This document shows, one piece after another, positions 1,721-56,394 of a stretch of 64,000 bases of DNA. A model generated the notes under the pieces. That model was not told where the DNA came from. It saw only the letters and a list, made by a program, of their open reading frames with translations, and did not search any database. The position numbers and the translations under genes were made by a program. Position 1 is the first letter of the stretch, and each line of letters begins with the position of its first letter. Source of the DNA: Ostreococcus lucimarinus (lineage: Eukaryota); assembly GCA_000092065.1 (NCBI GenBank), contig CP000584.1. One strand, 5' to 3'.

Positions 1721-4714
1721 ATGATGATCTCTGGCGCGTCGGCGACGCTGCGACGCGACGCGACGGCGCGATGCGCGGGCGGGAGGACGACGCGCGCGCG
1801 CGCGACGATGAAACGCGCGATGGTGCGTCGGCGCGCGGTGTCGTCGACGGGAAACGCGGAGAAGGATGCGCGATCGGCGGTGTCGATCGAGATCGATACG
1901 ACGACGGAGGCGGATTACACGGTGATCCACATTCGAGACGCGCCGAATAAGCCCGGGACGCTGCGAGTGATCACCACGGCGCTGGCGGACTTGGGGTTGA
2001 ATATCGATAAGGCGATCGTGGACGCGGCGAACGACGATCGGGTGAGCGATTGCTTTCACGTGACGGATACGAGCGGGGCGAAGGTGACGGACGCGGAGGA
2101 CGTGGAGAACATTCGGACGTGCTTGGCGATGATTTTGAAGACACACTTCCAGAGCGGGAGCGATGTGGCGCGACACGATGGGGATGAACGTCGGAGCTCG
2201 GCGCCGCAAGGTACGGATGAGCGAAGACAGCACGACTTGTTGTATTCGCTCATGGACAGGTATCTGCGAAACGACGTGATGAGCGTGCAGGAGTCAATCG
2301 TGAATCACGTCGAGTACACGATGGCGAGAAATAGGTACCAGTTTGATGACTTTGAGGCGTACAACGCGGCCGCATTTTCGGTTCGCGATCGTCTCATCGA
2401 AAGCTGGAACGACACGCAGCAATACTTTCGAGAAAAGAGCCCGAAGCGCGTGTACTACATGTCGATGGAGTTTTTGATGGGTCGCTCGTTGTTGAACTCG
2501 CTGTACAACTTGGACATCAAGCCGCAGTACACCGAAGCGTTGCGTCAGCTTGGATACGAGTTAGAAACGCTCGTAGATAAGGAACGCGACGCCGCGCTCG
2601 GGAACGGTGGTTTAGGTCGCTTGGCTTCTTGCTTTTTGGACTCGATGGCGACTCAGGATCTTCCGGCGTGGGGGTACGGCATTCGATACCAGTATGGTAT
2701 GTTCCGTCAAACCGTGAACGATGGCTTCCAGCACGAGCACCCCGATTACTGGCTGAACTTTGGTAATCCTTGGGAAATCGAGCGTCCATACATCAGCTAT
2801 CCCATCAAGTTTTACGGCGGCGTAGAGAAACAAATCATCGACGGCCACGAAGTCAACAAGTGGGTGGGTGGCGAAGATATCAGCGCCGTAGCGTACGACA
2901 ACCCGATTCCGGGCTGGAACACGCCAACGACGATCAACCTCCGATTGTGGAGCGCGAAACCATCGCGGGAGTTTGACTTGGAGTCGTTTAACACCGGGGA
3001 TTACGTGCAAGCGATTTTGGCAAAGCAGCGCGCTGAAACGATTTCATCCGTGCTCTACCCGGACGATCGTACGTACCAAGGCAAAGAGCTTCGCTTGAAA
3101 CAGCAATACTTCATGGTGTCTGCCACCATCCAGGACATTATTCGCCGCTACTTGGTGAATCACGACTCGTTTGACGAGTTCCCGAACCAAGTCGCGGTGC
3201 AGCTGAACGATACGCATCCTTCTCTCGCCATCCCGGAGTTGTTGCGCCTGCTCATCGATGAGCATGGGCTTTCGGACACGAAGGCTTGGGAAATCACTTC
3301 GAAGGTCTTCAGTTTCACCAACCACACCGTGCTCGTGGATGCGCTCGAGAAATGGCCGGTCGATTTGCTCGAAAAGGTGCTCCCGCGCCACATGCAAATC
3401 ATTTACGAAATCAACTGGAAATTCATCAGCGATCTCAGCCAGAAGCGCGGCGAAGACTTTGCGCTCTTTGGTCGTACGAGCATCATCGAAGAAACTACGG
3501 AAGGAAAACTCGTGCGCATGGCGCACCTCGCCATGGTCGGCTGTCACACCGTGAATGGCGTGGCCGAGGTCCACAGCGAACTTCTCAAGACGCGCATGTT
3601 TCCAGACTTTTACGAGTTGGCGCCGGAGAAGTTTCAAAATAAGACAAACGGCGTCACCCAACGCCGCTGGCTCGCCTTCAGTAATCCGGCCCTCCGTGAT
3701 TTGATCTCCAGCAAACTTGGCGGCGACTCTTGGATTCGCGAATTGGACATGCTCCATGATTTGGACAAGTACGCTGAAGACCCCGAGTTCCAAGCGCAGT
3801 GGCGCGCCATCAAGCTCGAGAATAAGAAGAAGTTAACGAAATTGATCGAGGAAAAGACGGGGACAGTGGTGAGCCCAAACGCTTTGTTTGACATTCAAGT
3901 CAAGCGCATCCATGAGTACAAGCGTCAGTTGCTCAACGTATTCTCTGTGATTCACCGGTACAATAAGATCAAGGCGGCGACGCCGGAGGAGCGCAAAGAA
4001 ATGGTACCGCGCGTCGTCGTCATCGGCGGCAAGGCTGCGCCGGGTTACGACATGGCCAAGCGCATCATCAAGCTCGTCTGCGCGGTGGGGGAGAAGGTGA
4101 ACAACGACCCTGACGTGGGTGACTTGCTTAAGCTCGTTTTCATCCCCGACTACAACGTCAGTAGCGCCGAAGTCATCGTACCCGCTGCGGAGCTGTCCCA
4201 GCACATCTCCACCGCCGGCACGGAGGCGTCGGGAACGTCCAACATGAAGTTTGCCATGAACGGTTGCTTGATCATCGGCACCATGGACGGTTCCAACGTC
4301 GAAATCGCAGAAGAGATCGGCAAACGTAACATGTTCATCTTCGGTGCGAACTCGGCAGATGTCCCAATCTTGCGCTCGGAGCGCGCGCGCTTCAAGCCGC
4401 CGCCCGAATTCGACGGCATAGTCGAACAGATTCGCGGCGGCGCCTTTGATTGGGCAGACTTCCTCAATCCGGTGTGCGACGCCGTGCACGGTGGTGCCGA
4501 TTACTACTTGCTCGCAAACGACTTCGAGGATTACATCCGCGCCCAAGACCTCGTCGATGAAACATACAAGGATCAGGCCAAGTGGACCACGATGAGCATC
4601 AAATCCACCGCCGGTTCCGGCAAGTTTAGCAGCGACAGAACGATTCGCGAGTACGCTAAGGATATCTGGGGCATCGAACCGTGCCGCCGTCCGGAACCTG
4701 GAAATCCGCGATAA
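1721..4714 (+). CDS. Alpha-1,4-glucan (starch/glycogen) phosphorylase of family GT35, with an N-terminal presequence and ACT domain
   Basis: The 997-aa ORF has an ATG at 1721. Residues about 65-140 (YTVIHIRDAPNKPGTLRVITTALADLGLNIDKAIVD...) look like an ACT fold. The rest is a canonical phosphorylase, including the pyridoxal-phosphate motif EASGTSNMKFAMNGCLIIGTMDGSNVEI and the NGGLGRLA signature. The Arg/Ala/Thr-rich N-terminus suggests organelle targeting. Confidence 0.9.
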   Translation: MMISGASATLRRDATARCAGGRTTRARATMKRAMVRRRAVSSTGNAEKDARSAVSIEIDTTTEADYTVIHIRDAPNKPGTLRVITTALADLGLNIDKAIVDAANDDRVSDCFHVTDTSGAKVTDAEDVENIRTCLAMILKTHFQSGSDVARHDGDERRSSAPQGTDERRQHDLLYSLMDRYLRNDVMSVQESIVNHVEYTMARNRYQFDDFEAYNAAAFSVRDRLIESWNDTQQYFREKSPKRVYYMSMEFLMGRSLLNSLYNLDIKPQYTEALRQLGYELETLVDKERDAALGNGGLGRLASCFLDSMATQDLPAWGYGIRYQYGMFRQTVNDGFQHEHPDYWLNFGNPWEIERPYISYPIKFYGGVEKQIIDGHEVNKWVGGEDISAVAYDNPIPGWNTPTTINLRLWSAKPSREFDLESFNTGDYVQAILAKQRAETISSVLYPDDRTYQGKELRLKQQYFMVSATIQDIIRRYLVNHDSFDEFPNQVAVQLNDTHPSLAIPELLRLLIDEHGLSDTKAWEITSKVFSFTNHTVLVDALEKWPVDLLEKVLPRHMQIIYEINWKFISDLSQKRGEDFALFGRTSIIEETTEGKLVRMAHLAMVGCHTVNGVAEVHSELLKTRMFPDFYELAPEKFQNKTNGVTQRRWLAFSNPALRDLISSKLGGDSWIRELDMLHDLDKYAEDPEFQAQWRAIKLENKKKLTKLIEEKTGTVVSPNALFDIQVKRIHEYKRQLLNVFSVIHRYNKIKAATPEERKEMVPRVVVIGGKAAPGYDMAKRIIKLVCAVGEKVNNDPDVGDLLKLVFIPDYNVSSAEVIVPAAELSQHISTAGTEASGTSNMKFAMNGCLIIGTMDGSNVEIAEEIGKRNMFIFGANSADVPILRSERARFKPPPEFDGIVEQIRGGAFDWADFLNPVCDAVHGGADYYLLANDFEDYIRAQDLVDETYKDQAKWTTMSIKSTAGSGKFSSDRTIREYAKDIWGIEPCRRPEPGNPR

Positions 4715-40122: not shown

Positions 40123-40749
40123 GCGCGACGGCGGACGCGTCGTCCGCGTCGTCGCGCGACACGGCGACGCGCGATGCGGATCGACGCGCGCGCGCCGACG
40201 CCGCCGCTGTGGGCGACGGCGCCGCCGAGACCGAGACGACGCGAATCGACGCGCGACGCGTCCGCGCGCGACGACGCGGACGCGGACGACGACGACGCGT
40301 TCGAGTGCGCGTACGAATTGGACGCGGCGTGGGCGGCGCGATTCGCGGCGACGGCGAAAAAACGAGCGGCGCGACGCGGGAGGGCGCGCGCGGGGCGAGG
40401 GCGGGCGCGGGACGGGACGAGGGCGGTGGGCTCGGGGGACGACGGGACGCGCGCGCGCGCGGAGGCGGCGGCGAGACGCGCGGAGACGCTGGCGCGAGCG
40501 GCGGCGACGGCGCGGGCGAAGCGCGCGGGCGAGGGCGAGGAGGAGGACGAGGAGGGAAGAGACGCGTGGTACGGCGCGGGAGGGGCGGCGGCGGTGGCGA
40601 TGGCGGAGGGGAAGTTGAACGCGGCGTTCGACGCGTGGTTGGACGCGGGCGAAGCGCGTTGGTGGCCGAGCGGTTTGCGATGAACGGCGAAGTTCATTCG
40701 GGTAGTTTAGGTAGCTTAGCTCGTGTTAATTTAGGTGGTTTAGACTTTA

Positions 40750-43700
40750 CTACTTGGTCGAGCCAGCTCGAGTGTCGGCTTTCTCGGCTTCCTCGGCGGC
40801 GCGCTTCTGTCGAAGTTGCTTCACGTACGGCGAGGTGGATTTTCGAAGAATGGCTTCCGCGGCGGAGTCGCGCACTTGTTTCCTGAGCGCCAAATCTTTG
40901 ATGACTGCCTTCTTTCTCTGGTCGTCGTCGGGTAAGTGCGCCACGGCGGCCAACATGTCTGCTTCGACTTGCTTTCGCGCCTTGATTTGTTTCCAGCGAC
41001 GCAAGAAAATGGAACCGGCAGACTTCTCGGCGGCGAGTGGCCACAACACGCTCGGCGCGTACGTTTGCCAGATTCCCTTCTTCACTTTGTACTCGATCTC
41101 AGCTTTTCCTTGCTCTCGAGTGTTTTCGAGAATATTCTTTTGCCGGCGTGTGCTCTTTTTCATTTCTTCCACCGGCACGATGCCGCGCATAACCTTCCTC
41201 TTCCTTGAATCACCGATTCGCGTCGTGCTCACGAAGATTTCTTGCCGAGCGTCTTCCTCGAGCGCTGGAACATCCGATCTCGAAGCCGATCTCGAAGCGA
41301 AGTATTCGTCGTCCGAGTCTTCTTCATGCTTGCCGCTTCTGCGCTTCAACGCTGCGCCAGCCGCGTGTACCGGCACCCTGAACGCATCGTTGAGGATGGT
41401 ATTCACGCGCGACCATTCGAGAAGGGTGAATAAAACGAGAGGTATGATGAAGACACGATACTTCATCGTGTTGAAGCCGAGCGTCGGAAGACCGAAAGCG
41501 ACCATGATTTGGCTGAACACGAGGCTGAAATACATCTTTCCGACGAGCCACGCCCACATGGACGTCCCCGCGGAGTACTGTTGGATGTAGTGATAGACCA
41601 TGTTGTGCTTCCAGAAAATGTAGAAAAAACCGAAGAAGACGCCGCACACCGGAAGTAAAACTGGTGCGACGACGGTGTAAATTATGCCGATGAAGAACAC
41701 CAACATCGTTTGCGCGGGAACCCGATGGCTCGGCGTGGGCGTCGGTTGAGCCCAGATGAGTCTCTTTGCGAAAGCCGGCCACGTGCGCGCTCGACTGCGG
41801 TATAGCAAGCACTTTGTGACGAAGCCGAGGAGTACCGGAGGATGGATCAACTCGAGAACCGGTGAAGTCGCGGTACGAAGCATGACGAACTGGAGGAAGA
41901 AAGTACTGGTATTCATCAACCTCAAGATGAACTGGTACGTGAACAAGTGCGGCTTTTGCATCCACACGAGGACGTCCTTCCACAGGGGCGTCGTGTTCAG
42001 GTTGGAAAAGACCAAGTTGAGAATGAGAAGCCAAAAGTACATAGACGCACCGAATGAGTCCATAGCGCTGACCGAGACGTAGCCAGTTTGCCGACTCACG
42101 ACCAAGCTTAAAATGTGACCGACGACGAGGAACACCGTCAACACAATTGACAGGATGATGTTGTAAATAGACTCGCCAAACACGCTCACGAGAGAGTCCT
42201 TGACGTCGGCGACAGCCGCGACAGCGATATTGACAGGGTACATGAAGAATAGAGAAATGGCCACGGCGATAAAAAAAGCCTGAGTCGTCTTTTTTGCGCG
42301 TTCGACGGATGTCAAGGAGAGATTGTGCCACACGACATCAGAGTTGCCTGGCGCCGGTTCGGTGACCCACTGCCCGGGAACGTCGTCAATTTGAATTTGA
42401 GAGGCTATGACGGCGTCCATTTGTCTCGCAAATACCACGACCGCACTACACGCGGGTCGGTGGTTGTTGATGTATTCATCGCGAGTGGAGATGAAAACAT
42501 CGAAGCGTTGCGCCTCGGCTCTCTTCAACGAATCCATATCTTTCAACGCTTTCGCAAGTTGAGTCGATTCCCCCCAGCTGAGTCCTCCAGTCTTTTCGGT
42601 CTCTTGTAAGTCGGCGATCGCTTGCATGTTCTGTGTGACGTGCTCGCGGGCATTCGCCCAGGCTTTCGCGGCGCTATCAAGCTTTCGAGTATCCGAGGCG
42701 AGCATTTTGAAAGCGATGCAGTCTTTGCCGAGGACGCTCTCAAACTTGCTGATGACAAGGTTCATCGACTCCTCCTTGTATAAAAGCCGAAGCTTGGCGG
42801 AATCACCGGAAGATTGCACGGTGCCATCGTTGAGTAAAAGCTTAAATCTCCCCAGGCAGCCGACTTCTTCGTCGTCGAAGATTTTGTCGAGTTTCTTCAC
42901 AGAACCTCGCACACTCTTTTTGACTTTAAGAATATCTTTGACGCTGCCGGTGTTAAGCTGTTCAAACTTTTTCGGTGCCGGAGCCGTGGTTAACAAGGGC
43001 ATATCCTTGACGAGGATTGCGTTCGCTTTAATACCAGTCTTATCGGGATCCACCGTCCACATCATGTGGACGTACTTACGCGACTCGACGCGAATCAAAG
43101 AAATCAGGAAGAGACTTGTGATCCAGGTGAAAGCCATGGCGGCCGCGAAAGAAGATTCGGTTCGAGCATTGAGCAGTGTGTATTTCGCGATACCGCTCTT
43201 TTCGAGAGTTGTAAGTATCTTCGAGCCCGCATCTGCGCTTGGTACGGTATCGGCGGCGTACAAACTCATGAGAATTGGACAACATACGGCGCCGGCGGTG
43301 AAGAAGAAGCGACTGGATAACTTGAACCAGCGGACGAGCATGTACTCGTCTGGGGTGGTGAACTCTTTCATCCAATTATTATCGCGGTGATAAGCGTCAT
43401 AAAGCCACGACCATGCATTGTCGTCTCTCGGTTTGGGAATCTGAATTTCTCGCGGCGGGTACTTGGGGTTGCCCTTTTCAACCCACGCCGCCGAGTCGAT
43501 CGCCATCCGGAGCCATACGATTTTACGCAACATAACAAAGAGGATGAGAAGGAATGAAAACAGACCCGCGTAAGACCCTACCAGCGTCCCCACTTCGGAC
43601 ATTGCGATCTGCGTATCGCAGGAGTCGTCGTTGTCACAAATCTCCAGATAATAGCACGAAATACCCGCGCCCGTTTGCTTGATACCTTCGATAGAAAAGT

Positions 43701-44115
43701 CGCCAGCGTACACCACCGGATAGTATCCAGCACCAGTATCGCACGCGATGCAGTCCATCTGATCCGACGGCGGACACCCACCCATGACGCGATAACTCGA
43801 CGCGTTCACCTGCGCCACCTTACCCCACGGCGCCACGTTACCCGCGTTCAAGCTCACCATCGGCGGATTCGACGTGCTTTGCAGCGTGTGAATCGTTCGC
43901 AGGTCGTTATCCTTCTCATTAAACAACCAATGCGAGCGCACCGCGCAATCCCCGGCGCATCCCGGCGGGCACGGACACCGTTGGCCTTGCTCGTCCAACA
44001 GCGTCGCCGTGATCCACGCCGCCGAGTCCCACGGCGTTCGCGTTCGCGGCGGTTGCACCTTCGTGAGCTCGCTCGTCGGCGTCGCGCCGTAGTTTTCTTG
44101 CGTCGGCGTCGCCAT
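40750..44115 (-). CDS. OSCA/CSC1/TMEM63-family mechanosensitive or hyperosmolality-gated cation channel with an extended Cys-rich N-terminal ectodomain
   Basis: The ATG is confirmed (cat at 44113-44115). TM0/TM1/TM2 are followed by the family-specific cytosolic domain (ILVKDMP ... SAVVVFARQMDAVIASQIQ ... QWVTEPAPGNSDVVWHNL). This is followed by the 7-TM RSN1 region (QAFFIAVAISLFF ... MLVFFIGIIYTVVAPVLLPVCGVFFGFFYIFWKHNMVYHY). About 300 aa precede the first TM and contain CPCPPGCAGDC-type clusters. Confidence 0.8.
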   Translation of the reverse strand: MATPTQENYGATPTSELTKVQPPRTRTPWDSAAWITATLLDEQGQRCPCPPGCAGDCAVRSHWLFNEKDNDLRTIHTLQSTSNPPMVSLNAGNVAPWGKVAQVNASSYRVMGGCPPSDQMDCIACDTGAGYYPVVYAGDFSIEGIKQTGAGISCYYLEICDNDDSCDTQIAMSEVGTLVGSYAGLFSFLLILFVMLRKIVWLRMAIDSAAWVEKGNPKYPPREIQIPKPRDDNAWSWLYDAYHRDNNWMKEFTTPDEYMLVRWFKLSSRFFFTAGAVCCPILMSLYAADTVPSADAGSKILTTLEKSGIAKYTLLNARTESSFAAAMAFTWITSLFLISLIRVESRKYVHMMWTVDPDKTGIKANAILVKDMPLLTTAPAPKKFEQLNTGSVKDILKVKKSVRGSVKKLDKIFDDEEVGCLGRFKLLLNDGTVQSSGDSAKLRLLYKEESMNLVISKFESVLGKDCIAFKMLASDTRKLDSAAKAWANAREHVTQNMQAIADLQETEKTGGLSWGESTQLAKALKDMDSLKRAEAQRFDVFISTRDEYINNHRPACSAVVVFARQMDAVIASQIQIDDVPGQWVTEPAPGNSDVVWHNLSLTSVERAKKTTQAFFIAVAISLFFMYPVNIAVAAVADVKDSLVSVFGESIYNIILSIVLTVFLVVGHILSLVVSRQTGYVSVSAMDSFGASMYFWLLILNLVFSNLNTTPLWKDVLVWMQKPHLFTYQFILRLMNTSTFFLQFVMLRTATSPVLELIHPPVLLGFVTKCLLYRSRARTWPAFAKRLIWAQPTPTPSHRVPAQTMLVFFIGIIYTVVAPVLLPVCGVFFGFFYIFWKHNMVYHYIQQYSAGTSMWAWLVGKMYFSLVFSQIMVAFGLPTLGFNTMKYRVFIIPLVLFTLLEWSRVNTILNDAFRVPVHAAGAALKRRSGKHEEDSDDEYFASRSASRSDVPALEEDARQEIFVSTTRIGDSRKRKVMRGIVPVEEMKKSTRRQKNILENTREQGKAEIEYKVKKGIWQTYAPSVLWPLAAEKSAGSIFLRRWKQIKARKQVEADMLAAVAHLPDDDQRKKAVIKDLALRKQVRDSAAEAILRKSTSPYVKQLRQKRAAEEAEKADTRAGSTK

Positions 44116-44525
44116 GGCGGCGCGCGACGCCTTTTATCGCGCGCGCGCGTCGTCGCACCACCCGCGACGGTTTCGATGCTCAACCACCCTCGCCGGCGTC
44201 GTTCGCGTCGCGCGCCGAACGCGCGCGCCGCGCGCGAGACCGCGACGGCGCGCTCGAAAACGCTCGCACTCTCGCGCGCGGGGCTCTCGGGGCGATCGCG
44301 CGGGAGGGCGCGAGGCAGTGCGGCGCGATCGGCGCGCGATGCGGTCGGTCGCGCATTCCGACGCGGCGAAGATTTTAACATTTTCGCACAGGGGTGAGGG
44401 TCGAGGGGGCGCGCGCGCGGGGCGGCGGGCGAGGGACGCGCGCGCGCGCGAACGAACGAACGAACGGACGAACGAATCGCGATGAATGTGGTGGTGTTAA
44501 ACTCTAAGCGTCGCGCGGGCGCGGA

Positions 44526-47500
44526 TCAGCCGCGACGCTTGCTCAATCGCCACGCGTTCGGATCGTTGTAGCGATCGTACAGGGGCTCGATTTTCTCGCT
44601 CTTTTTGCGCTTGCTCAGATGGCGAGGGTCGCTGAGCTTGAAAAAGCGCGGAGCGAGCTCGACGAGCCATTTGGGGTCGATGGCGCAGACTTCACGCATG
44701 TACTCCTTGGTCGTGAGCACGAGCTCGTGGTAGATGACCCAGTCGGGCTGACGTTGGAAGAGCGCGCTCGAGGGGTGAATGTACGTCGGAGTCTGCTCGA
44801 CGATGGTTTTGTAACCCTCCTGCGGATCTTTCTTGGCGCCGTGGAAGAAGAAACCCGAGCAGATGGCTTTGCGAACTTTGTTGTAGTTGCGTCCAGCGCT
44901 CGTGGTGCCGAGCTTGTATCGATCCATGATGGTGAGAAGTTGTTTACGGACGTCTTGCGCGCGCTTCATCGAACGCGCCTGTAAAAAGTTCTCGTAACAC
45001 CAAGGTTCGCTGAAACCTTGAGCCTTCCACGCCTCATACACCGACAACAATGTCAAATGGTCGCCTTCGGCTTGGAAAAACTTGTTCTTCTTCGCGTCCG
45101 CCTGCGCTTGCTTTTCCTTCGGGCGGTGGAAGATATTTTGAGCGCTCAGCATGGCGACGATGGTCAAAATTTCCTCAGAACACCCGAGATCAACGCTCGC
45201 GATGAGCATCTTACTCATCGGCGGCTCCAATGGAAACTCTGCCATCTTGCGCCCGAGTCGAGTGAGCAAGCCTTCCTCATCTAACGCGCCTAAATTGTAC
45301 AGTTGCTCCAAAGCCGTGACGAGCGTCGCCGGTGGAGGCGGGTCCATGAAATCAAAATTAATCAAGTCGTTGATCCCCATAGCTTTCATCGTCAGCACCG
45401 TCATGCTCAGGTTCGTCCTTTGAATTTCTGGCACCGATGTCGGGAGCATTTCGTTCTTGAACGCACTTTCCGTGTACAATCTATAACACTTGCCGGGACC
45501 TGTACGACCGGCGCGACCGGCTCGCTGTCGAGCTGAAGCCTGTGAAATCGGAGCCACGATGAGAGAGTCCATGGAAATCTTAGGATTGTACACTTTTTGT
45601 TTTGAAAACCCGGGATCGACGACGTAGAAGATGCCGTCAATAGTGAGCGAGGCTTCGGCAATGTTTGTCGCGATGACGCACTTGCGACTGCCGGGCGGCG
45701 CCGGCTCAAAAATGCGCGTCTGCTGTTCGCTAGGAAGAGCAGAGTACACCGGCAAGACGTGTAACTCTGGAACCGCTGGACCTAATGCGCGCATACGATC
45801 GAATAGAATCTCCGCAGCCGCATCAATCTCTTCTTGACCCGTGAGGAACAGTAAGATGTCGCCCTCGGGCTCTGTGAGGTGGATTTGCATCACCGTGATC
45901 AAAGCGGCATCAAGATAGTCGCTCTCGGGAGCTTTAGTATACAATACTTCGACAGGAAACGTTCGACCAGGAATGGTGAAAATGGGGCAATCGAAAAAGT
46001 ACGTCGAAAACTTTTCGGCGTCCAAAGTAGCTGACGTCACGATGATTTTCAAGTCTTTTCGCTTTGCGCAGCACTTCTTCAGCAATCCGAACAATACGTC
46101 CGTGTGGATCGTTCTTTCGTGTGCCTCATCGAGCATGATGACGCAATACTGCGATAACAAGTCATCCAACAAAGCCTCGCGAAGTAGCATACCATCGGTC
46201 ATGTACTTGATAACTGTGTCCTGTGACGTGCAGTCTTCGAAACGAATCGCGTAACCAACCTCTTCACCGAGTCGACAGCCGTACTCCTCGGCGACACGCT
46301 TGGCTACGGACATTGCGGCCACACGCCTTGGTTGCGTGCATCCTATTCTACCCCGTGACGTATACCCAGCCTCGGCCAAGTATTGGGTCATCTGCGTCGT
46401 TTTCCCCGAACCCGTCTCGCCAATCACCACTAAAATCTGATTTTCATTCACCGCTTGAATCAATTGATCGCGCAGTTTATAAATCGGTAGCGTCTGCCGT
46501 AATTGATGAATGGGCATCGTCTGTGGCTGGCCCATCCTTTGACCTTGGCCCATGGACTTGGCCTTCCAAGCGGGCATATCGCGGCCTCCGCGACTGCCGC
46601 CGTACTGTCGAGCCTCCTCTGTCAACGACGCATCGCCCTGTCTTCTCATCGGATCCTCCCACGGACGCGCCGCTACTTGACCCTCGGCCTCAGTATTTGC
46701 TCGCTGCTGCTGATCGCGAAGCTCGCGTCGCTCTTTCGCCAGCGTGGCTTGCGTCATGGCGGCGCGTTGCATGGAACCATCTGGGTTTTTGACAATTTTA
46801 ATCGGCGAAACGTCACCCGTGCTCGCCGCAGTTTGTCCCTGCAAGAACGGCGCCTCGTCTTCGTTGATCTCGATTTCAACTTCCTCTTCAGCTTCTTCTT
46901 CGTAGGATAGCATGCCGTCGTTTTCCGGATCGAATTGCGGATAGTCTTGCACCTTCAACACCCCGCTCGCGATGAGCTGCCGAGCTTCCCACAGCTCCGG
47001 CGAACTCAGCCTCTTTGCAGGTCGTTTGCGCGAGGCTGTGTTTGCTTCATCCAAAGTGCTGGCATCGATGCCAGAAAGGCCTTTAAGTGACGCCATTCCC
47101 CCTGCTGCTGACGGCCCGGGTGGCGGTAAATTCCTCGGCGCTGGATTACTTCTGTTACCGCCAAACGTGGCGCGCGCAGTCTCCTTCCCCGAGATTTGGT
47201 CCACATCCTTCATCGACAGCGATATCTTGTTTCCGTTACGATTCAAAACTTTGACAAACACGCTCTCACCTCGCCTCGCGCCGTCCTTTGCGCTTTTCAG
47301 GTGTCGATCGGTAATGGCGCTCACGTGCACCAAGCCCTCCGCCTTGCGCTTGAACTCCACCAACTCCACAAAGGCTCCGAAATCCATCACATTTGTCACC
47401 CTTCCGCGGTACACCCCACCCACACTTGGCTCACCATCTCGCGTCTTCTCATCGCTCTTCGTCTGCGCGCTCGCAAGCGAGTGCGAAACCTCCCTCTCGT

Positions 47501-47933
47501 TCGCCCGTTCGCTCTTGCTCGGGTCGTCCGCCGCGTTTGCGAGCGCGTCCCGGTCCCCGTATAATTCCCTCGTCAACGCCTTCGCGTGCGAATCATCGTC
47601 CCGCACCGCAAGTCCAGGAAAGTTTGCGTCGCCGCTCGACCTTCCAGACGTCCCCGCGCTTCCCGCAGTCGCCGCATTTGTCCCGCGCGCCGTCCCGCTC
47701 GGCTTCTTCCGCATCCGCTGAATCAGCCCAAGCAAAGATTCCGCGAACGCATCGTCCACTTCTGCGCCGACCGCGCCAAGCGCCTTCCGAAACGTCACCG
47801 GAGTGTCGTTTTCGTCCGTGAGCGCGATGACGAACTCGCTCAGCGTCTTATCGGCGATCCCGAGGTGATTTTCGAGCTCCTTCGTGACTTTGTTCACGAG
47901 CGAGAGCTGCGCGAGTTTGGCGAGCGCCGCCAT
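44526..47933 (-). CDS. DHX8: Pre-mRNA-splicing factor ATP-dependent RNA helicase DHX8/Prp22 (DEAH-box)
   Basis: The start was placed at the internal ATG (cat at 47931-47933) giving [16 protein letters not shown]. The listed ORF begins at a TTG. The S1 domain is [25 protein letters not shown] helicase motifs are present ([27 protein letters not shown]), plus the HA2 and OB C-terminus. Confidence 0.9.
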
Positions 47934-48118
47934 CGGGACGCCGAGCGGGCGCGCCGTGACGCGCGGTGATGAGTTTCGCGATCGCACGGCCGCACGCGCG
48001 AGATGCGGGTGGACTGGACGCGAGTCACGATGTGAGGATCGAGCAATGCCAGGGACGACGGCTGGACGACGGCTGGCGACGAGCGCAGTGGTGCGCAAGG
48101 CGTTACAAATACAATGGG

Positions 48119-50869
48119 TTATAAGTCGATCAAGTTGCCGGTGGCGGGTCCAGATGCGTCCGATGGCGGTTGCGAGGACGTCGACGGCGCTGACGGAAAC
48201 GCAGGGGCGAAGAGAGTCCAATTCGGGGTGAAAATTGACGTCTCAGCGGCTTGAACTTCGTGCGCGCGGTACGAGTCGATGAAAGAGGGATGGCATCCCG
48301 CGAGCGCACCGACGAAGGCAACGCGACGGCGTGATGGCTCATCGGCGCTGTCATCAGATTCTGCGAAAAAGCACCGGGCGAAGGTCGCGCACACGGCGGC
48401 GGTGTCGGTGGGCAAACTTGTTTGCGCACGCTCGTCGTCGATGCGCTTGATGAGCGTCGCCGCGTGTGCGAGCGCCGCTCTCGTCTTCCCCGAGACGTGC
48501 TTGTTAAGGACGCTGTTGATGAAATCTCTGGTTGGGAAAGAATCCAGAGGCATGGAGTCCACGACGCTCGTAATTTCTGGCTTTTCCAGCACGCGCTGCG
48601 GGAGCGCGGAGAAGAGCGAGATGAGTGCTTCACCGACGTCGTACGCGTTGCCGCCGATGGCGCTCAGTTTCACCGAATTCGCTCGATTAGTGTGGAATGC
48701 ATTGGCAATCTTCGCAAGTACCCCTCGTGTACGAACATTCTCAAAGGGTACGCGGAAAAGTCCCGGCGCCGCACTCACTTTCTCGTGTAGAAAGTCTACG
48801 AGACTTGTCACGACTTGCGGAACGTTTGGCGGAATCGCCGACGTTGGAAGATCTTCGAAAGGCGTGCCAAACGTGCATGGTTGGTACGTCCCTTGGACAG
48901 AAACGAAAAAATCCCTCCCACCCTCGAGCCTGACGACCAAAATCGCGTCGACATGCTTTGGTTTGGCATCCACGTGTATGAGCGAGTCGTCGCCGTATCT
49001 CGTCAGCGAATCGTGACTAAACGCGCTCGGACCCGACCTTCGTCCACCCCGAACGCATGCGGTGACGTTCAGAATGACTTCCTCACCTGGTAACAAGCTA
49101 CCACTCATCGGGTAGACGGACATCCAACCGGGAGTCGCCGGACCACCCGGTATCGGAGAAACGAGACTGAAGTTGGCCGGGACGTCGCCGACGTTTGAAA
49201 GCCTAAACTTACCGGCCACTTCCTCGGAGTAGCGCAAACGGCCCAAATCGACGCTTGCGTTCTCTATTGCGCATACCGGCATAGACGCCATCTCGACGTG
49301 ATCAAGCTTTCGACGCAAATCGAACAAAAGGCTGTGCAGTTTTTTTGGTTCAAGCTCTCGAACCACTAGCGAAAATACGGCGTACACTGGCTTGTGATCT
49401 GAGTGCGTCAGCTCGGCACGGCCATACTCCAACAGGTTGATATCAAAATCACCGTTCCACAGCACTCGATCGCACCAGGCTGGAGTGCGTTTCTTCTCCT
49501 CCTCTTTTCTCTGAGAGCCGCCAACTTCGTCCAGATCCGCATCGCCCGCTCCGCTATAAATGTTTGTGCCCGGTCTATACTTGTACGTCGGCGCGAAAGT
49601 GACTTCGCTTTCGTGCCATCCTCTAAATGCACGCCCGGCACTGCGTTCGATGTTCAGTTGATCAGACGCCAGTAGGCTCGAATAGTTTCCCGCGGCGATT
49701 GACTTGCGCACGACGTCGTCGGACAACGTCAATCGATAGTTCAAGTCCCCCATCCAGATCGAGCTCGCAGCATCCGCGACGGAATACTCCGACGCATCCG
49801 CGCCTTCGGGCGGCAAAAATCTCAGCTGGTCCATAATTGTGCTATAATCTTCGTTCCGCTTGATTTCATCGCCCGGTTTCGAGCCCGCGCTCAAGTGCGA
49901 GCACACGAAAACCAAAGGCGTGCTGTAAAGTTTCATCCAAACAGCGCACGCACCCTTGTTTCCTAGTATACCGACGCCAATATTAAACCCAGTCGCCACC
50001 GTTCCAACGCGTACGTCTTGGATATGCGGCAGCAGCGATGCCTTCACCCACACGGTTATGTACACGCCGACGAGTTGCTTCTGCGCCACAGGTCTATACT
50101 TCGCGGCGCCCTGTTTCGACTTTGGCGGCCTCCAACTCGAACCCTCACGAATCGCAAAGTCACTTATATCTTCCTCCTCGTCACCACCGTCGAAGGATAC
50201 CCATTTCACCGTCTCGGGCGTTGCTTGCCCCGACGTCGTCGCGAACGACGCCTCCGTCGCGTCGTCGGCGTCAAACTCCGCGGTGTAATCACTCAGCACC
50301 CCGCGTCGCTTCGTCGCCGGCTGATTCGCCGCCGAGCCATTCAACGCCTTATCCAGCACGCGTTCCCACGCCTCCGTCATCGCGCTGTCCTCTCCCACGA
50401 GCACCTTGCCAACGTTGAGCGGGACGATTTCCTGAAAACCAACCGCCACGACGTCCGCCGCGTCGTCGTCGTCCCACGTCCCTCCCTCGCCCTCGTCCAA
50501 CCTCCCGCGATTGCGCACCCACTCCTTGACGTCCGCGTCCGCCCTCGGCGCTTTCCCATTCGTGTTCCACGTCCCCGCGAACACCCGCAGCGGTCGTCGC
50601 TCCGTGTACGCGTCGATGGATTCATTCAAAAACTCTCTCCGCACCGCCGTCGACGCGATCCGCCGTCCCCACTCGCGCGCCAGCGGATGCGCGCGTTCCG
50701 TCGTCGTCGCCGTCGTCGTCGCCGTCGCGCGCGCGTCGTCGCTCGCGCTCGGGCCGTCGAAATCGCGCACCCACGCGCTCGTCGCCTCGCGCGCGCGCTC
50801 GCCGTCTCGCGCGCCGCTCGCGCTTCGCTCGCGCTCGCTCGCCGTCGCGCTCGCGAAGAGCGCGCGCAT
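48119..50869 (-). CDS. Inositol polyphosphate 5-phosphatase (OCRL/INPP5B-like) with a C-terminal ASH/RhoGAP-like region
   Basis: The ATG is confirmed. 5-phosphatase catalytic motifs are present ([34 protein letters not shown]). The RhoGAP-like C-terminus is [22 protein letters not shown]. Confidence 0.85.
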
Positions 50870-52878: not shown

Positions 52879-53073
52879 CGCCGACGTCGCGCGACCGCGC
52901 GCGCGCGCGTGCCGTCGCGTTCGTATGGCGCGCAGTGAGAAACGGTTTTTCGACACCCGGGATGCCGCAGACGCGCGCGCGCTGGGTCGACGACGACGAC
53001 GATGACGACGCGAACGGAACGTCGCCGACGTGGATTCGATGATTCGGTCGAACGTTCGGCGCGCGCGCGCGCG

Positions 53074-56000
53074 ATGTGGACGCGCGCGAGCGCCGCCGGC
53101 GCGATGGTTTCGCTCGCGATGGCGAGCGGGACGGCCGTCGCGTACACGGCGGGGACGGCGTGTTACCCCGAAGCGGCGTGCGAGTCGGGCGGAAGCAACA
53201 CGTTCGATAAATACCAGCGAAGAGTGTGTCAAATGCTCGCGGACACGAGCAAGTATTGCATCATCCCGAGCGAACCGACGGACGAATTGAGTGGGTGTTC
53301 GCGCGAGCTGCTGTATCACGGTTGGTGCGACGCGAACAAGTACGTCTTTGAATCGGGATGTTTGGCCAAACATCCGACGACGGATTCTTCGGCGTGCTCG
53401 AATTGCAATTTCGATTCGTATCCGACAGCGTATTGGAGCGTGGGGGCGCCATATCCTCTACACCCTGGAATGGTTAATCACGCTTTCCGAGAGTGCGTGG
53501 TCGATTACGTCAAGGCGAAGATCGAAGAAGGTTTTGCCGCTGAAGGTATGACCGCGGATGCGACATCGCTTCAGCAGCTCGCAGAGCAAGAATTTCCGGT
53601 GGAACAAATGGTGGACGTTGACGATTACAAAGAGCAGTATTCAAGTTATTACTTAGATGATGGAGACTTCGACGAGTTGGACGAAGAGATGACCGATGAA
53701 CACCTCGACGACGTCTCCGGATCCGTTGACGAAAGCGTCATGACGAAGACAGTAACGGCTTCGTGCTCTTCGCCCTCAGACGACAAAATCTGCTACAAAA
53801 TGTGCGCTGGTGACCTCGGTCTTAATCTCGAGTATAAGATCAAGGTGCCGAAAGTCTGCGCTAAAATCAAAATTCTCGGGAAGAAGTTTAAGAAATGCAT
53901 CAGAGTCCCGACGACGAAGTTTAAAATTCCAAACAAGTGCACGAACTTGTGCGTCAATATTCCAGGTTACTGCGAGATGCAAGAAGCGGCGAGTGCGATT
54001 ACACAGATAAAGAACATCAGATCACTCGGTGATTTGGCATTACCCTGCAAAACACTGGGTGGGCCGGGCGATGTCTGTAATCTGCTCGAAGAAGCCGACG
54101 ACGCGTTTAGAGCGATGGAGTCGATGGCGAAAATAGCCACGACGTCAACGGTCGACGCCTTTCTCGATCTGCGAGTGTTACCGTCGATATTGCAAAACGT
54201 CCTCGACGAAGCTACGGACGCTTTGGAGGACATCGCCAACGGCCTCGAAAATAAACTCCGCAACTTGGTGGAACATGTCTGGGGTACGGTTGCGAGCTCG
54301 TCGTCCGAAGTCGTATCGTTCATCGAAAATAACGTCAAGGGTTCAATATGCGCATCGTCGAGTTCCACGGCATCGCTCGGAGCCGCGCGCGAAGAGCGAC
54401 GACTCGCCCTCGTAAATGACATTCATCGCGGCGTGCGCGCTGCGTTCCGGGGCGACTCGACTCCGACGCACTCAGCGCGTCCAATCGTTCCTAATCTAGG
54501 CGCTGGGCAGTGTTGCTATCACATCCCGTTCGCGTGTAGCAGCGAGGTGGATTTCCCAATGCCTTGGCCGAAGGCCTTGGAGAATATATCGGACTCACCG
54601 GGTGCCGTCGTTGTGAACATGCCGGGCCTGGAATTCAACATCTGTGGCGAGATCACGCAGTTTAAGGTGGACGAGAAAGTTGCGACGAAACTGGTGAATG
54701 CTTTTGGTGATATGTTCGAAGCGCTCTTTGCAGCACTTTACGAAGAGAGCGGACTGAAAAAAGTCGTGGATGACGTGAAAGATCTGACAAAGGACATGTT
54801 TGGGTCGTCGGCGGCGCTCGGATCGTATGATCGACCGTCTTTCTCCACCGACGACCGCAAACATCTGTTGAGGAAATACGTCGAAGTCAAAAACCGGATG
54901 GCAGAGACGGAGACAATCGTTCTGGAGGAACTTTTGAAAATATCTGACACCATTCATTCGCCCGAATACTTGACGCATACAACACGGACGCCGTCGCGCG
55001 ATGACGTGCCGTCTCTGGGCGGCGAGAACTTGTTCGAAAAGGTCCTGAATGATTTCGCCGACGATTTGCAGACGGCTCTTAAATCTATGGCAGACACGAC
55101 AGTCGTGAAGGCGGATATGTCAATCAACGTGAAAGGAGACACGTCCATCAATGCGAAGGCGAGCGTCTACAAGATCGGCGACATCATCGACAAGCTCGAT
55201 ATTCCAAATAGCTTTGCGGGCGTCCACGTCGCCCCTCTGTTTCCCGGTTTAACCGCGGCGCTTCAATACGACGTGTTGCTTTCGATGCCATATTACGTCA
55301 ACATCGACATGGAGGCATCTTTTGCCTTGGGTCTCGATATCGATATCCCGATATCTCTCGAACTTTCGAATACACCAAACTTCGCCATGGGCTCGCCCGC
55401 CGTGAACTTGGTTCCGACGTACACCGCAGCCGGTAAGTCGAGCGCGCAGGTAGGCGCGAGTGTTGAGATAAAGAAAGGCTGGATAGCGCTGTGCGCGGGG
55501 ACTCACTGCGTCGGCCCATGGATCAAAGCGCGCCAAGACGTCTACGTCGGGGTCGACACCTGGGCTTTCGCCAACTGCGACTCGGGATATGGCGAGCTCG
55601 TGCCAAAATGGACCGACGGATTCTCTTATTCGAGCAAAAATCAAGCAGCATGCGCAGGTTCACTCGCAGGCGCTGGTGGCTACGCGCAAGTGCCGAAGAC
55701 GGGCAATATTCTCGCTCAGGTACTGTTCGCCCCCATGCCGATCATGCCCTCGGGCGCGAGCGCCGCCTCGCAATCCGCGGCGCGTCTCGGCGACGACGAC
55801 GACGAGTGCGAGGCTCAGCCAATGGGTATGATACTGGCCGATTACACCAACACCGTGCATAACGCCGTCATGGCGGGCGGCGATAACTGGTACACGACGG
55901 ATTTGTTTGCCGAGTGCCCGTCCGCGGGCAAGTGCCCCGCGCCGTCACCGCCGCAACCGTACACGCCAACGGCGAACACAAAGCTTGCCAAGTACAACGC

Positions 56001-56394
56001 CCGGTGCTGCGGCAACTCCGGCGATTCGCGCTGCGCCGCAGCGATCGAAGGTACGTACGAAACGCTCTGCGCCCAGCTCTGCGACGCCTGCGCGGGTTGT
56101 GTCGCCTTCGACTACCAAGCCAGCAAGAACAAATGCGGCTTCAGCAAAAGCGATAGCACGGAGGACCGGGTGGGATTCACGCACTTCGGTCACGGCGCGA
56201 CGCCCGCGTCCAAATCTTCCCTCGGCTCTCGCATGCGTTTCAGCGCGCGCGCGTCGTCGCCAACGTCACCATCCGCGCTCACCGCCGTCTTCGTCGTCGC
56301 CTTCGCCGCCGCCTTCGCCTCGGCCGCGTTTCGCCGCCGCCGCCTCGACGACGCTCGCCGCGCGCGCGTCGACGATTACGGCGCGTTCGACTGA
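53074..56394 (+). CDS. Large hypothetical Cys-rich secreted protein with a C-terminal membrane anchor; codon-usage outlier
   Basis: The ATG at 53074 gives the signal peptide [23 protein letters not shown]. There are over 60 Cys in clusters. A PAN/apple-like Cys pattern occurs near the C-terminus ([37 protein letters not shown]...C). The final hydrophobic stretch [18 protein letters not shown] is followed by RRRR. The region is visibly more AT-rich at third codon positions than its neighbours. Confidence 0.6.

Follow-up and report, generated by a model that had tools for sequence, protein, structure and literature searches.

The 64,000-nucleotide (nt) stretch of Ostreococcus lucimarinus DNA studied here (assembly GCA_000092065.1, contig CP000584.1), which we call the window, carries on its minus strand an intact gene for a protein that, judged from its sequence, belongs to a small divergent subfamily of the OSCA/TMEM63/CSC1 family, and in which the channel-type core is preceded by a conserved Cys-rich domain placed before the first transmembrane (TM) helix, TM0. 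Members of this family (TC 1.A.17-type) are cation channels of 11 TM helices that open in response to membrane tension or hyperosmolality. The features of the gene and of its protein are collected in Table 1.

Gene model and channel core

The open reading frame (ORF) of 1121 amino acids (aa) ends with a stop codon at 40750-40752 (-) and shows no interruption in the ORF list of the window, and its ATG (context GCCGCCATGG) is the first start after an in-frame TAA located 21 nt upstream. No further Met occurs between M1 and residue 86, and M86, M111 and M120 all lie within the conserved domain. In this frame, the guanine-plus-cytosine (GC) content at third codon positions (GC3) amounts to 0.74 over codons 1-178 and to 0.62-0.73 over the rest of the ORF. 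In addition, the window protein can be aligned over its whole length, from M1 onwards, with 12 homologues (1093-1204 aa, 57-99% identity), in all of which M1 and the N-terminal domain are conserved. Note that the GC content of the window drops locally to 0.525 at 42001-44000, compared with ~0.60-0.65 in the adjoining DNA, because codon positions 1 and 2 are GC-poor in hydrophobic TM regions (GC2 0.36-0.41), and not because of a foreign origin.

Transcript-derived sequences cover the same gene. Two Logan contigs encode exactly this protein, among them L005, which comes from run SRR847308; L005 (3413 nt) and L004 (6897 nt) both agree letter for letter with the window. L005 is gap-free and colinear with window 40740-44152, starting 37 nt before the ATG and ending 10 nt past the stop, as expected for an unspliced mRNA, with the caveat that an RNA-seq assembly may include genomic carry-over. 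This run is an O. lucimarinus RNA-seq run if those of preprint 10.1101/2025.04.21.649811 (SRR1300453, SRR847308 and SRR17220685, for B. prasinos RCC1105, O. lucimarinus CCE9901 and M. commoda RCC299) are read in list order. The MMETSP transcript ORFs P0058 (1123 aa, in the same 90% cluster as the window protein) and P0016 (in a sister cluster), both labelled 'complete', use the same Met start and read through the Cys-rich region into TM0. These data show that the N-terminal domain is translated within the same protein as the OSCA core.

A mis-joined gene or an untranslated leader, for which an earlier note on this DNA had asked for a transcript check, is contradicted by L005, P0058 and P0016, and the gene model stands. 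Such an artefact, in which ~175 codons at the 5' end would have been taken over from another gene or from the 5' untranslated region (5'UTR), with the true translation start near TM0, could be suspected because canonical OSCAs begin only a few residues before TM0 and because the first 28 residues are poorly conserved. It is already contradicted, however, by the positions of the Met residues, by the continuous ORF with its in-frame GC3 periodicity, by RNA-seq-derived and MMETSP contigs that span the whole ORF from the same Met, and by the recurrence of the architecture in the 12 homologues and in P0074, an orthologue of 29% identity encoded by a single ORF, so that we leave it almost no probability.

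Table 1. Location of the gene, its protein regions and its upstream spacer in the window
Feature	Position	Strand	Basis
Complete single-exon ORF, 1121 aa, OSCA-family protein	40750..44115	(-)	Pfam, upstream stop, exact L005 match
Variable N-terminal tail, residues 1-28, no signal peptide	44032..44115	(-)	28% mean identity
Cys-rich core (putative ectodomain), residues 29-170, 10 invariant Cys, N104-A-S sequon	43606..44031	(-)	Conservation, rarity
Cys cluster 1, C47-x-C49-x3-C53-x3-C57 (CPCPxGCxxDC)	43945..43977	(-)	Invariant in 13/13 of wider alignment
Cys cluster 2, C114-PP-x5-C122-x2-C125	43741..43776	(-)	Invariant in 13/13 of wider alignment
Cys cluster 3, C154-x5-C160-x5-C166, ending ~8-10 residues before TM0	43618..43656	(-)	Invariant wherever reached
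TM0, ~residues 176-198	43522..43590	(-)	Kyte-Doolittle 2.3; RSN1_TM profile position 5 at residue 178
RSN1_TM region (TM0-TM2), residues 178-341	43093..43584	(-)	PF13967
Cytosolic domain between TM2 and TM3, residues 342-610	42286..43092	(-)	PF14703 sub-cutoff; OSCA1.2 alignment
TM3-TM10 pore/channel core, residues 611-912	41380..42285	(-)	PF02714, PDB OSCA1.2, Foldseek
E755, opposite pore-facing E531 of AtOSCA1.2 (TM6)	41851..41853	(-)	Alignment to PDB OSCA1.2
Conserved C-terminal cytosolic module, residues 1001-1100, including GIWQTYAPSVLWPLAAEKSAGSIFLRRWKQIKARK	40816..41115	(-)	72% mean identity
Intergenic spacer, 410 nt, promoter and 5'UTR, between helicase gene and OSCA ATG	44116..44525	(-)	GC 0.72

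The assignment to the OSCA/CSC1 type, with the order TM0-TM2, cytosolic domain and RSN1_7TM that the earlier note had described, is borne out by profile, sequence and fold matches that agree with each other, the PHM7_cyt match being marginal. Pfam RSN1_TM reaches 48.3 bits (cutoff 27, E 1.1e-12, profile positions 5-153 of 156) and is also found in P0074, and RSN1_7TM, at residues 648-872, reaches 74.2 bits (cutoff 28.7, E 1.5e-20). A phmmer search of PDB sequences returned OSCA proteins only, namely rice OSCA1.2 (6oce, E 3.1e-26), AtOSCA1.2/CSC1 (4e-19), AtOSCA1.1 (8e-19), OSCA3.1/ERD4 (5e-14) and OSCA2.3 (2e-11); no TMEM63 chain appeared in this search at E<=0.01, which suggests that the window protein is nearer to plant OSCAs, yet highly divergent. 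With the full-length AlphaFold2 (AF2) model, which is of low confidence (pLDDT, the model's own confidence score, 43), the top seven Foldseek matches were OSCA structures (OSCA1.2, 1.1, 3.1 and 2.3), of which the five best reach E<=0.001 and the remaining two are weak (OSCA3.1 at E 3.3e-3, OSCA2.3 at E 2.5e-2).

Within the core, the phmmer alignment includes the WxTExAP...W.NL motif before TM3, and residues 537-600 align to the strands of the second intracellular loop (IL2) and the WxTExAP motif of OSCA1.2. The cytosolic domain has long helices in the low-confidence AF2 model and is ~100 aa longer than in plant OSCAs. Counted from hydropathy and the same model, rather than with a dedicated topology predictor, the protein contains TM0, TM1, TM2 and about eight more helices in residues 603-911. 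E755, which is aligned with E531 of AtOSCA1.2, is invariant in the 12 homologues, and E531 is the pore-facing glutamate that determines conductance in AtOSCA1.2 (PMC6235563).

The Cys-rich domain and its side of the membrane

The earlier note had proposed an extra Cys-rich N-terminal domain of about 300 aa, and of this the presence of the domain is confirmed but not the size, since only ~175 aa precede TM0 (position 5 of the RSN1_TM profile falls on residue 178 and the first TM-like segment spans residues 174-207); the larger figure probably came from counting on to TM1 (~266-289). The three Cys clusters quoted there occur as CPCPPGCAGDCAV (residues 47-59), MGGCPPSDQMDCIACDTGAGYY (111-132) and ICDNDDSCD (159-167). 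Cys makes up 5.6% of residues 1-178 compared with 0.7% of the remaining protein, and all ten Cys of the ~140-aa core (C47, C49, C53, C57, C114, C122, C125, C154, C160 and C166) are invariant in the 12 homologues, whereas ~32% of domain positions are invariant (hypergeometric probability ~5e-6), so that the enrichment cannot be attributed to chance. In a wider alignment of 13 sequences, which includes relatives at 25-37% identity, seven of the ten Cys could be scored in every sequence and were invariant, and the other three were invariant in each sequence that reached them. Other invariant residues are W29, W34, R73-T74-I75, C114-P-P, G130-x-Y-P and S141-I-E-G-I. Mean identity amounts to 56% in the core (29-170), 64% in TM0-TM2 and 74% in the TM3-TM10 core.

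This domain is rare as well as conserved. Residues 1-178 matched no Pfam family at E<=1 and no PDB sequence (best E 0.63), and their low-confidence model gave no significant fold match to described Cys-rich families (EGF, PSI, TNFR, furin-like and others). When 1.84 billion cluster representatives were searched exhaustively with an HMMER profile, 12 proteins with the domain came up at E<=1e-3, one of which (P0080) is a low-complexity repeat and probably spurious, and every match long enough to be judged runs on into TM0 or RSN1_TM; all known occurrences of the domain are thus at the N-terminus of proteins of this OSCA subfamily. A word-indexed homologue search found one fragment with the N-terminal 208 aa alone and four short proteins with the wider alignment, and viral contigs scanned for the domain, in view of possible carriage by prasinoviruses, gave no relative. 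The comparison with plant OSCA1 and algal homologues suggested by the earlier note revealed that the extension is common to the 12 homologues and the 29%-identical orthologue, and is without counterpart in plant OSCAs. As a side observation, P0075 (93 aa, from a 353-kb ENA contig) matches the window protein over its residues 1-13 and 46-89, and its residues 14-45 correspond to another frame of the same DNA (cf. ORF 43919-44161), this switch of frame probably going back to an indel or to an artefact of assembly or gene calling.

Three lines of evidence bear on the side of the membrane. In OSCA1.2, the N-terminus is outside and no structured extracellular domain is present (PMC6235563); in the window protein, residues 1-173 contain by hydropathy no further hydrophobic segment that could flip this orientation. 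Five acidic residues precede TM0 (DNDDSCD...SE) and basic residues (R197, K198 and R202) follow it, and such an acidic N side and basic C side are consistent with an N-terminus lying outside. The decisive evidence comes from distant relatives, since P0074, P0073 and P0078 carry classical signal peptides before the same domain (h-regions IAVSICALLLTL, IAIAILALLLTV and LLCFLAVSSCLF, with 12-aa hydropathies of 2.5-3.1), which implies that the domain is exported. In P0074 and P0073, a Ser/Thr/Pro-rich linker separates the signal peptide from the 10-Cys domain. P0074 (1169 aa), encoded by one ORF within a compact genomic contig of 15.6 kb, is colinear with residues 29-1051 of the window protein at 29% identity, including the C-terminal motif, and on contig L006, P0073 is immediately followed by an in-frame RSN1_7TM ORF. 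In addition, 8 of 12 homologues retain a sequon at the position of N104. Taken together, these comparisons show indirectly that the N-terminal domain faces the exoplasmic space, whether extracellular or luminal, and the extracellular placement put forward earlier is therefore supported by family topology, by the charges around TM0 and by the signal peptides of distant relatives.

It should be noticed that contig L006 (ENA ERZ16303046 NODE_1819598, 3.6 kb), which holds one of these signal-peptide-bearing orthologues, contains one in-frame TAG at 841-843, past which the frame is unchanged (LDR*KTEYENVPKLQPAIEGYFGFGW compared with LDRTRIENANVPPLERAIEGYFGFGW in P0074); this TAG could be a sequencing error, a pseudogene, a stop-codon readthrough or a reassigned codon. 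The contigs of signal-peptide-bearing orthologues have GC contents of ~48% (L006) and 44% (L007).

The window protein itself has no signal peptide, its best 12-aa Kyte-Doolittle value being 0.83 for segments starting at residues 1-60, and 11 close homologues likewise have none (best 12-aa hydropathy <=1.12). In the Ostreococcus-type clade, a short hydrophilic tail (residues 1-28) stands in place of the signal peptide and Ser/Thr-rich linker of the P0074 type (P0074 residues 1-70). Two candidate targeting signals were rejected. An upstream exon encoding a signal peptide is not compatible with the spacer before the ATG, whose three-frame translation showed no Met followed by a hydrophobic run and thus no signal-peptide-like coding potential, nor with transcript contigs whose first base lies 37 nt ahead of the ATG. 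A transit peptide for an organelle was rejected on inspection only, the tail containing acidic residues and not being Arg/Ser-rich.

C-terminal module and neighbouring genes

Beyond TM10, the protein has a conserved module with the near-invariant stretch GIWQTYAPSVLWPLAAEKSAGSIFLRRWKQIKARK; this module is recognisable in P0074 and has no Pfam match. Its basic amphipathic helix is a candidate regulatory element that could bind calmodulin or act as an autoinhibitor like the C-terminal tail reported for TMEM63B (PMC13332465).

Directly upstream on the same strand lies a DHX8/PRP22-type helicase gene (S1 + DEAH + HA2 + OB; window 44526-48221 (-)). This helicase-OSCA order, with a spacer of ~400-500 nt (see also L001 89-3490 and L008 1-2573), is kept in three lineages whose OSCA proteins are only 57-58% identical to the window protein, which indicates a long-lived microsynteny. 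The long ORFs of the window are intron-free, in DNA of ~60% GC, and others among them encode Mg-chelatase subunit H, glucan phosphorylase, MutS, SNF2, HECT/ankyrin and OCRL-like 5-phosphatase proteins, a content typical of nuclear DNA from a photosynthetic eukaryote with a compact genome. The glucan phosphorylase (window 1721-4714 (+); PF00343, 1033 bits) has an N-terminal ACT domain (PF01842, 28.9 bits, residues 73-121), and the 1130-aa ORF at window 53002-56394 (+) matched no Pfam family at E<=1e-5.

Proposed role, alternatives and significance

Altogether, we consider it likely that the gene encodes a divergent OSCA-type channel with an exported Cys-rich N-terminal domain that probably acts on TM0, and this is the best overall explanation of the observations. 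The ten Cys would form five disulfides within the domain; the predicted outer loops of the channel contain no Cys with which they could pair. In this Ostreococcus-type protein, which has no signal peptide, TM0 would serve as a reverse (N-exo) signal-anchor that carries the still-unfolded domain across the membrane of the endoplasmic reticulum, and the domain would oxidise and fold there after translocation. In characterised OSCAs, the TM0 helix sits at the periphery, embedded in lipid; its position varies from structure to structure and it is mobile in OSCA2.3 (PMC10312710), and residue F22 of TM0 in OSCA1.2 contacts the TM6 gate region, its crosslinking blocking reopening (PMC12346119). A domain at the outer end of such a mobile and gate-contacting helix would be well placed to bias TM0 and the tension threshold. 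Fixed there, a compact domain may set or modulate this threshold or relay an external cue to the gate; this is the least certain step of the scheme, to which we give somewhat less than an even chance.

Several points weigh against this explanation. Pfam PHM7_cyt (PF14703), at residues 474-598, scored 25.5 bits and remains just below its cutoff of 27. Channel activity is ascribed by homology at ~15-23% identity to solved OSCAs. An N-terminal exoplasmic domain of 175 aa without a signal peptide is unusual for translocation. The AF2 model of the ectodomain is of low confidence (pLDDT 46) and provides no usable fold, disulfide pattern or channel contact, and the link between ectodomain and gating is one that we only infer, from analogy with other family members.

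Among the alternatives, the Cys-rich region could be a cytosolic metal-binding (Zn or Cu) domain rather than an ectodomain, as its CxCxxxCxxxC cluster resembles metal-binding motifs and the window protein has no signal peptide. We regard this as very improbable, given that the family N-terminus is extracellular, that residues 1-173 hold no extra TM segment, that acidic residues precede and basic residues follow TM0, that a cleavable-type signal peptide stands directly upstream of the same domain in distant relatives and that the sequon at the N104 position is kept in 8/12 homologues. More serious, although in our view still unlikely, is an ectodomain without a role in gating, which would instead serve folding or quality control, membrane sorting, oligomerisation or the shielding of the outer face of the channel in a wall-less cell. 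Indeed, wherever the domain occurs it is fused to an OSCA of this subfamily, as would be the case for a dedicated structural appendage and not for a reusable ligand-binding module; its sequence also changes faster than that of the channel core (56% vs 74% identity), and the domain matches no known ligand-binding family. In contrast, the Cys skeleton together with W29, W34, RTI, CPP, GYYP and SIEGI is kept down to 25-37% identity, which exceeds the needs of a passive spacer, and the very short link to a TM0 implicated in gating favours a functional coupling. Such roles are compatible with the explanation that we prefer.

Two further proposals concern the activity of the protein and the stimulus that it would receive. 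It might be mainly a mechanically activated lipid scramblase and not an ion channel, with an ectodomain that modulates scrambling, as scramblase activity or potential is reported for OSCA/TMEM63 proteins (PMC11534332, PMC11753361, PMC13013810). The sequence does not discriminate a channel from a scramblase; however, the closest solved relatives (OSCA1.2, 1.1 and 3.1) are characterised as mechanically activated ion channels and the conductance-determining glutamate is conserved, and a scramblase thus appears quite improbable to us. Only slightly less doubtful is a receptor-channel hybrid, in which a disulfide-rich extracellular sensor on TM0 would turn a ligand, a redox change or the contact with a particle, cell or virus into opening. 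Sensing of the cell covering, which the earlier note had also considered, is unlikely in Ostreococcus, since its cells are naked and are not known to bear a wall or scales.

Returning to the preferred explanation of an OSCA-type channel with an exported domain, comparison with known systems delimits what is shared and what is added. Plant OSCA1.2/CSC1 (PDB 6MGV, 6IJZ and 6OCE; Arabidopsis and rice), OSCA1.1, OSCA3.1 and OSCA2.3 have the same order of TM0-TM2, cytosolic IL2 and TM3-TM10, and they are at the same time the best sequence (E 3e-26) and the best fold matches of the window protein. The motif before TM3 (WVTEPAPGNSDVVWHNL in the window protein, WITEWAPEPRDVYWNNL in OSCA1.2) and the pore glutamate (E755, equivalent to E531 of plant OSCA1.2) are common to both. 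In contrast, plant OSCAs are ~720-780 aa long, begin a few residues before TM0 and have no structured extracellular domain, whereas the window protein, at 1121 aa, is extended by the Cys-rich N-terminal domain (175 aa), by a longer cytosolic domain and by the conserved C-terminal module of ~200 aa, with an identity of ~15-23% over the aligned core.

The animal proteins TMEM63A/B/C are members of the superfamily of the window protein and share its 11-TM plan. Their N-termini before TM0 comprise only a few tens of residues and are not known to contain a Cys-rich fold. The regulatory C-tail reported for TMEM63B (PMC13332465) may be analogous to the C-terminal module. As an analogy only, TMEM16A (anoctamin-1), of the related TMEM16/OSCA fold, does have a structured extracellular domain, and TMEM16 proteins are without TM0 (PMC6235563). 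No sequence relationship was found between TMEM16A and the Cys-rich domain of the window protein. The extracellular domain of TMEM16A is built from loops between TM helices and not from an N-terminal extension before an extra TM0. Our literature search (OSCAs with a Cys-rich or N-terminal ectodomain; surveys of green-algal OSCAs) retrieved nothing relevant. An OSCA architecture with a Cys-rich ectodomain, which differs from all solved members, thus had no earlier description in the searchable literature.

The architecture of this protein is solidly established and unusual for its family, and its function is what we entirely infer. OSCA/TMEM63 proteins are currently seen as force-from-lipid sensors that have hardly any structured portion on the extracellular side (PMC6235563). 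A conserved subfamily that carries a domain on the outer end of TM0 constitutes a natural experiment on how the position of TM0 relates to opening and on how this fold may be controlled from the extracellular side. That a 175-aa exoplasmic domain was kept in one clade in which the signal peptide was lost is, in addition, a small puzzle in membrane-protein topogenesis. The subfamily is found in Ostreococcus-type picoalgae, minimal and naked marine cells that are dominant ecologically and amenable to genetics, and whose osmo- and mechanosensing are poorly understood. If the receptor-channel hybrid considered above, which we regard as improbable, were true, their protein would be the first OSCA/TMEM63-type channel in which gating is coupled to a dedicated folded extracellular sensor, and would not be a pure force-from-lipid sensor.

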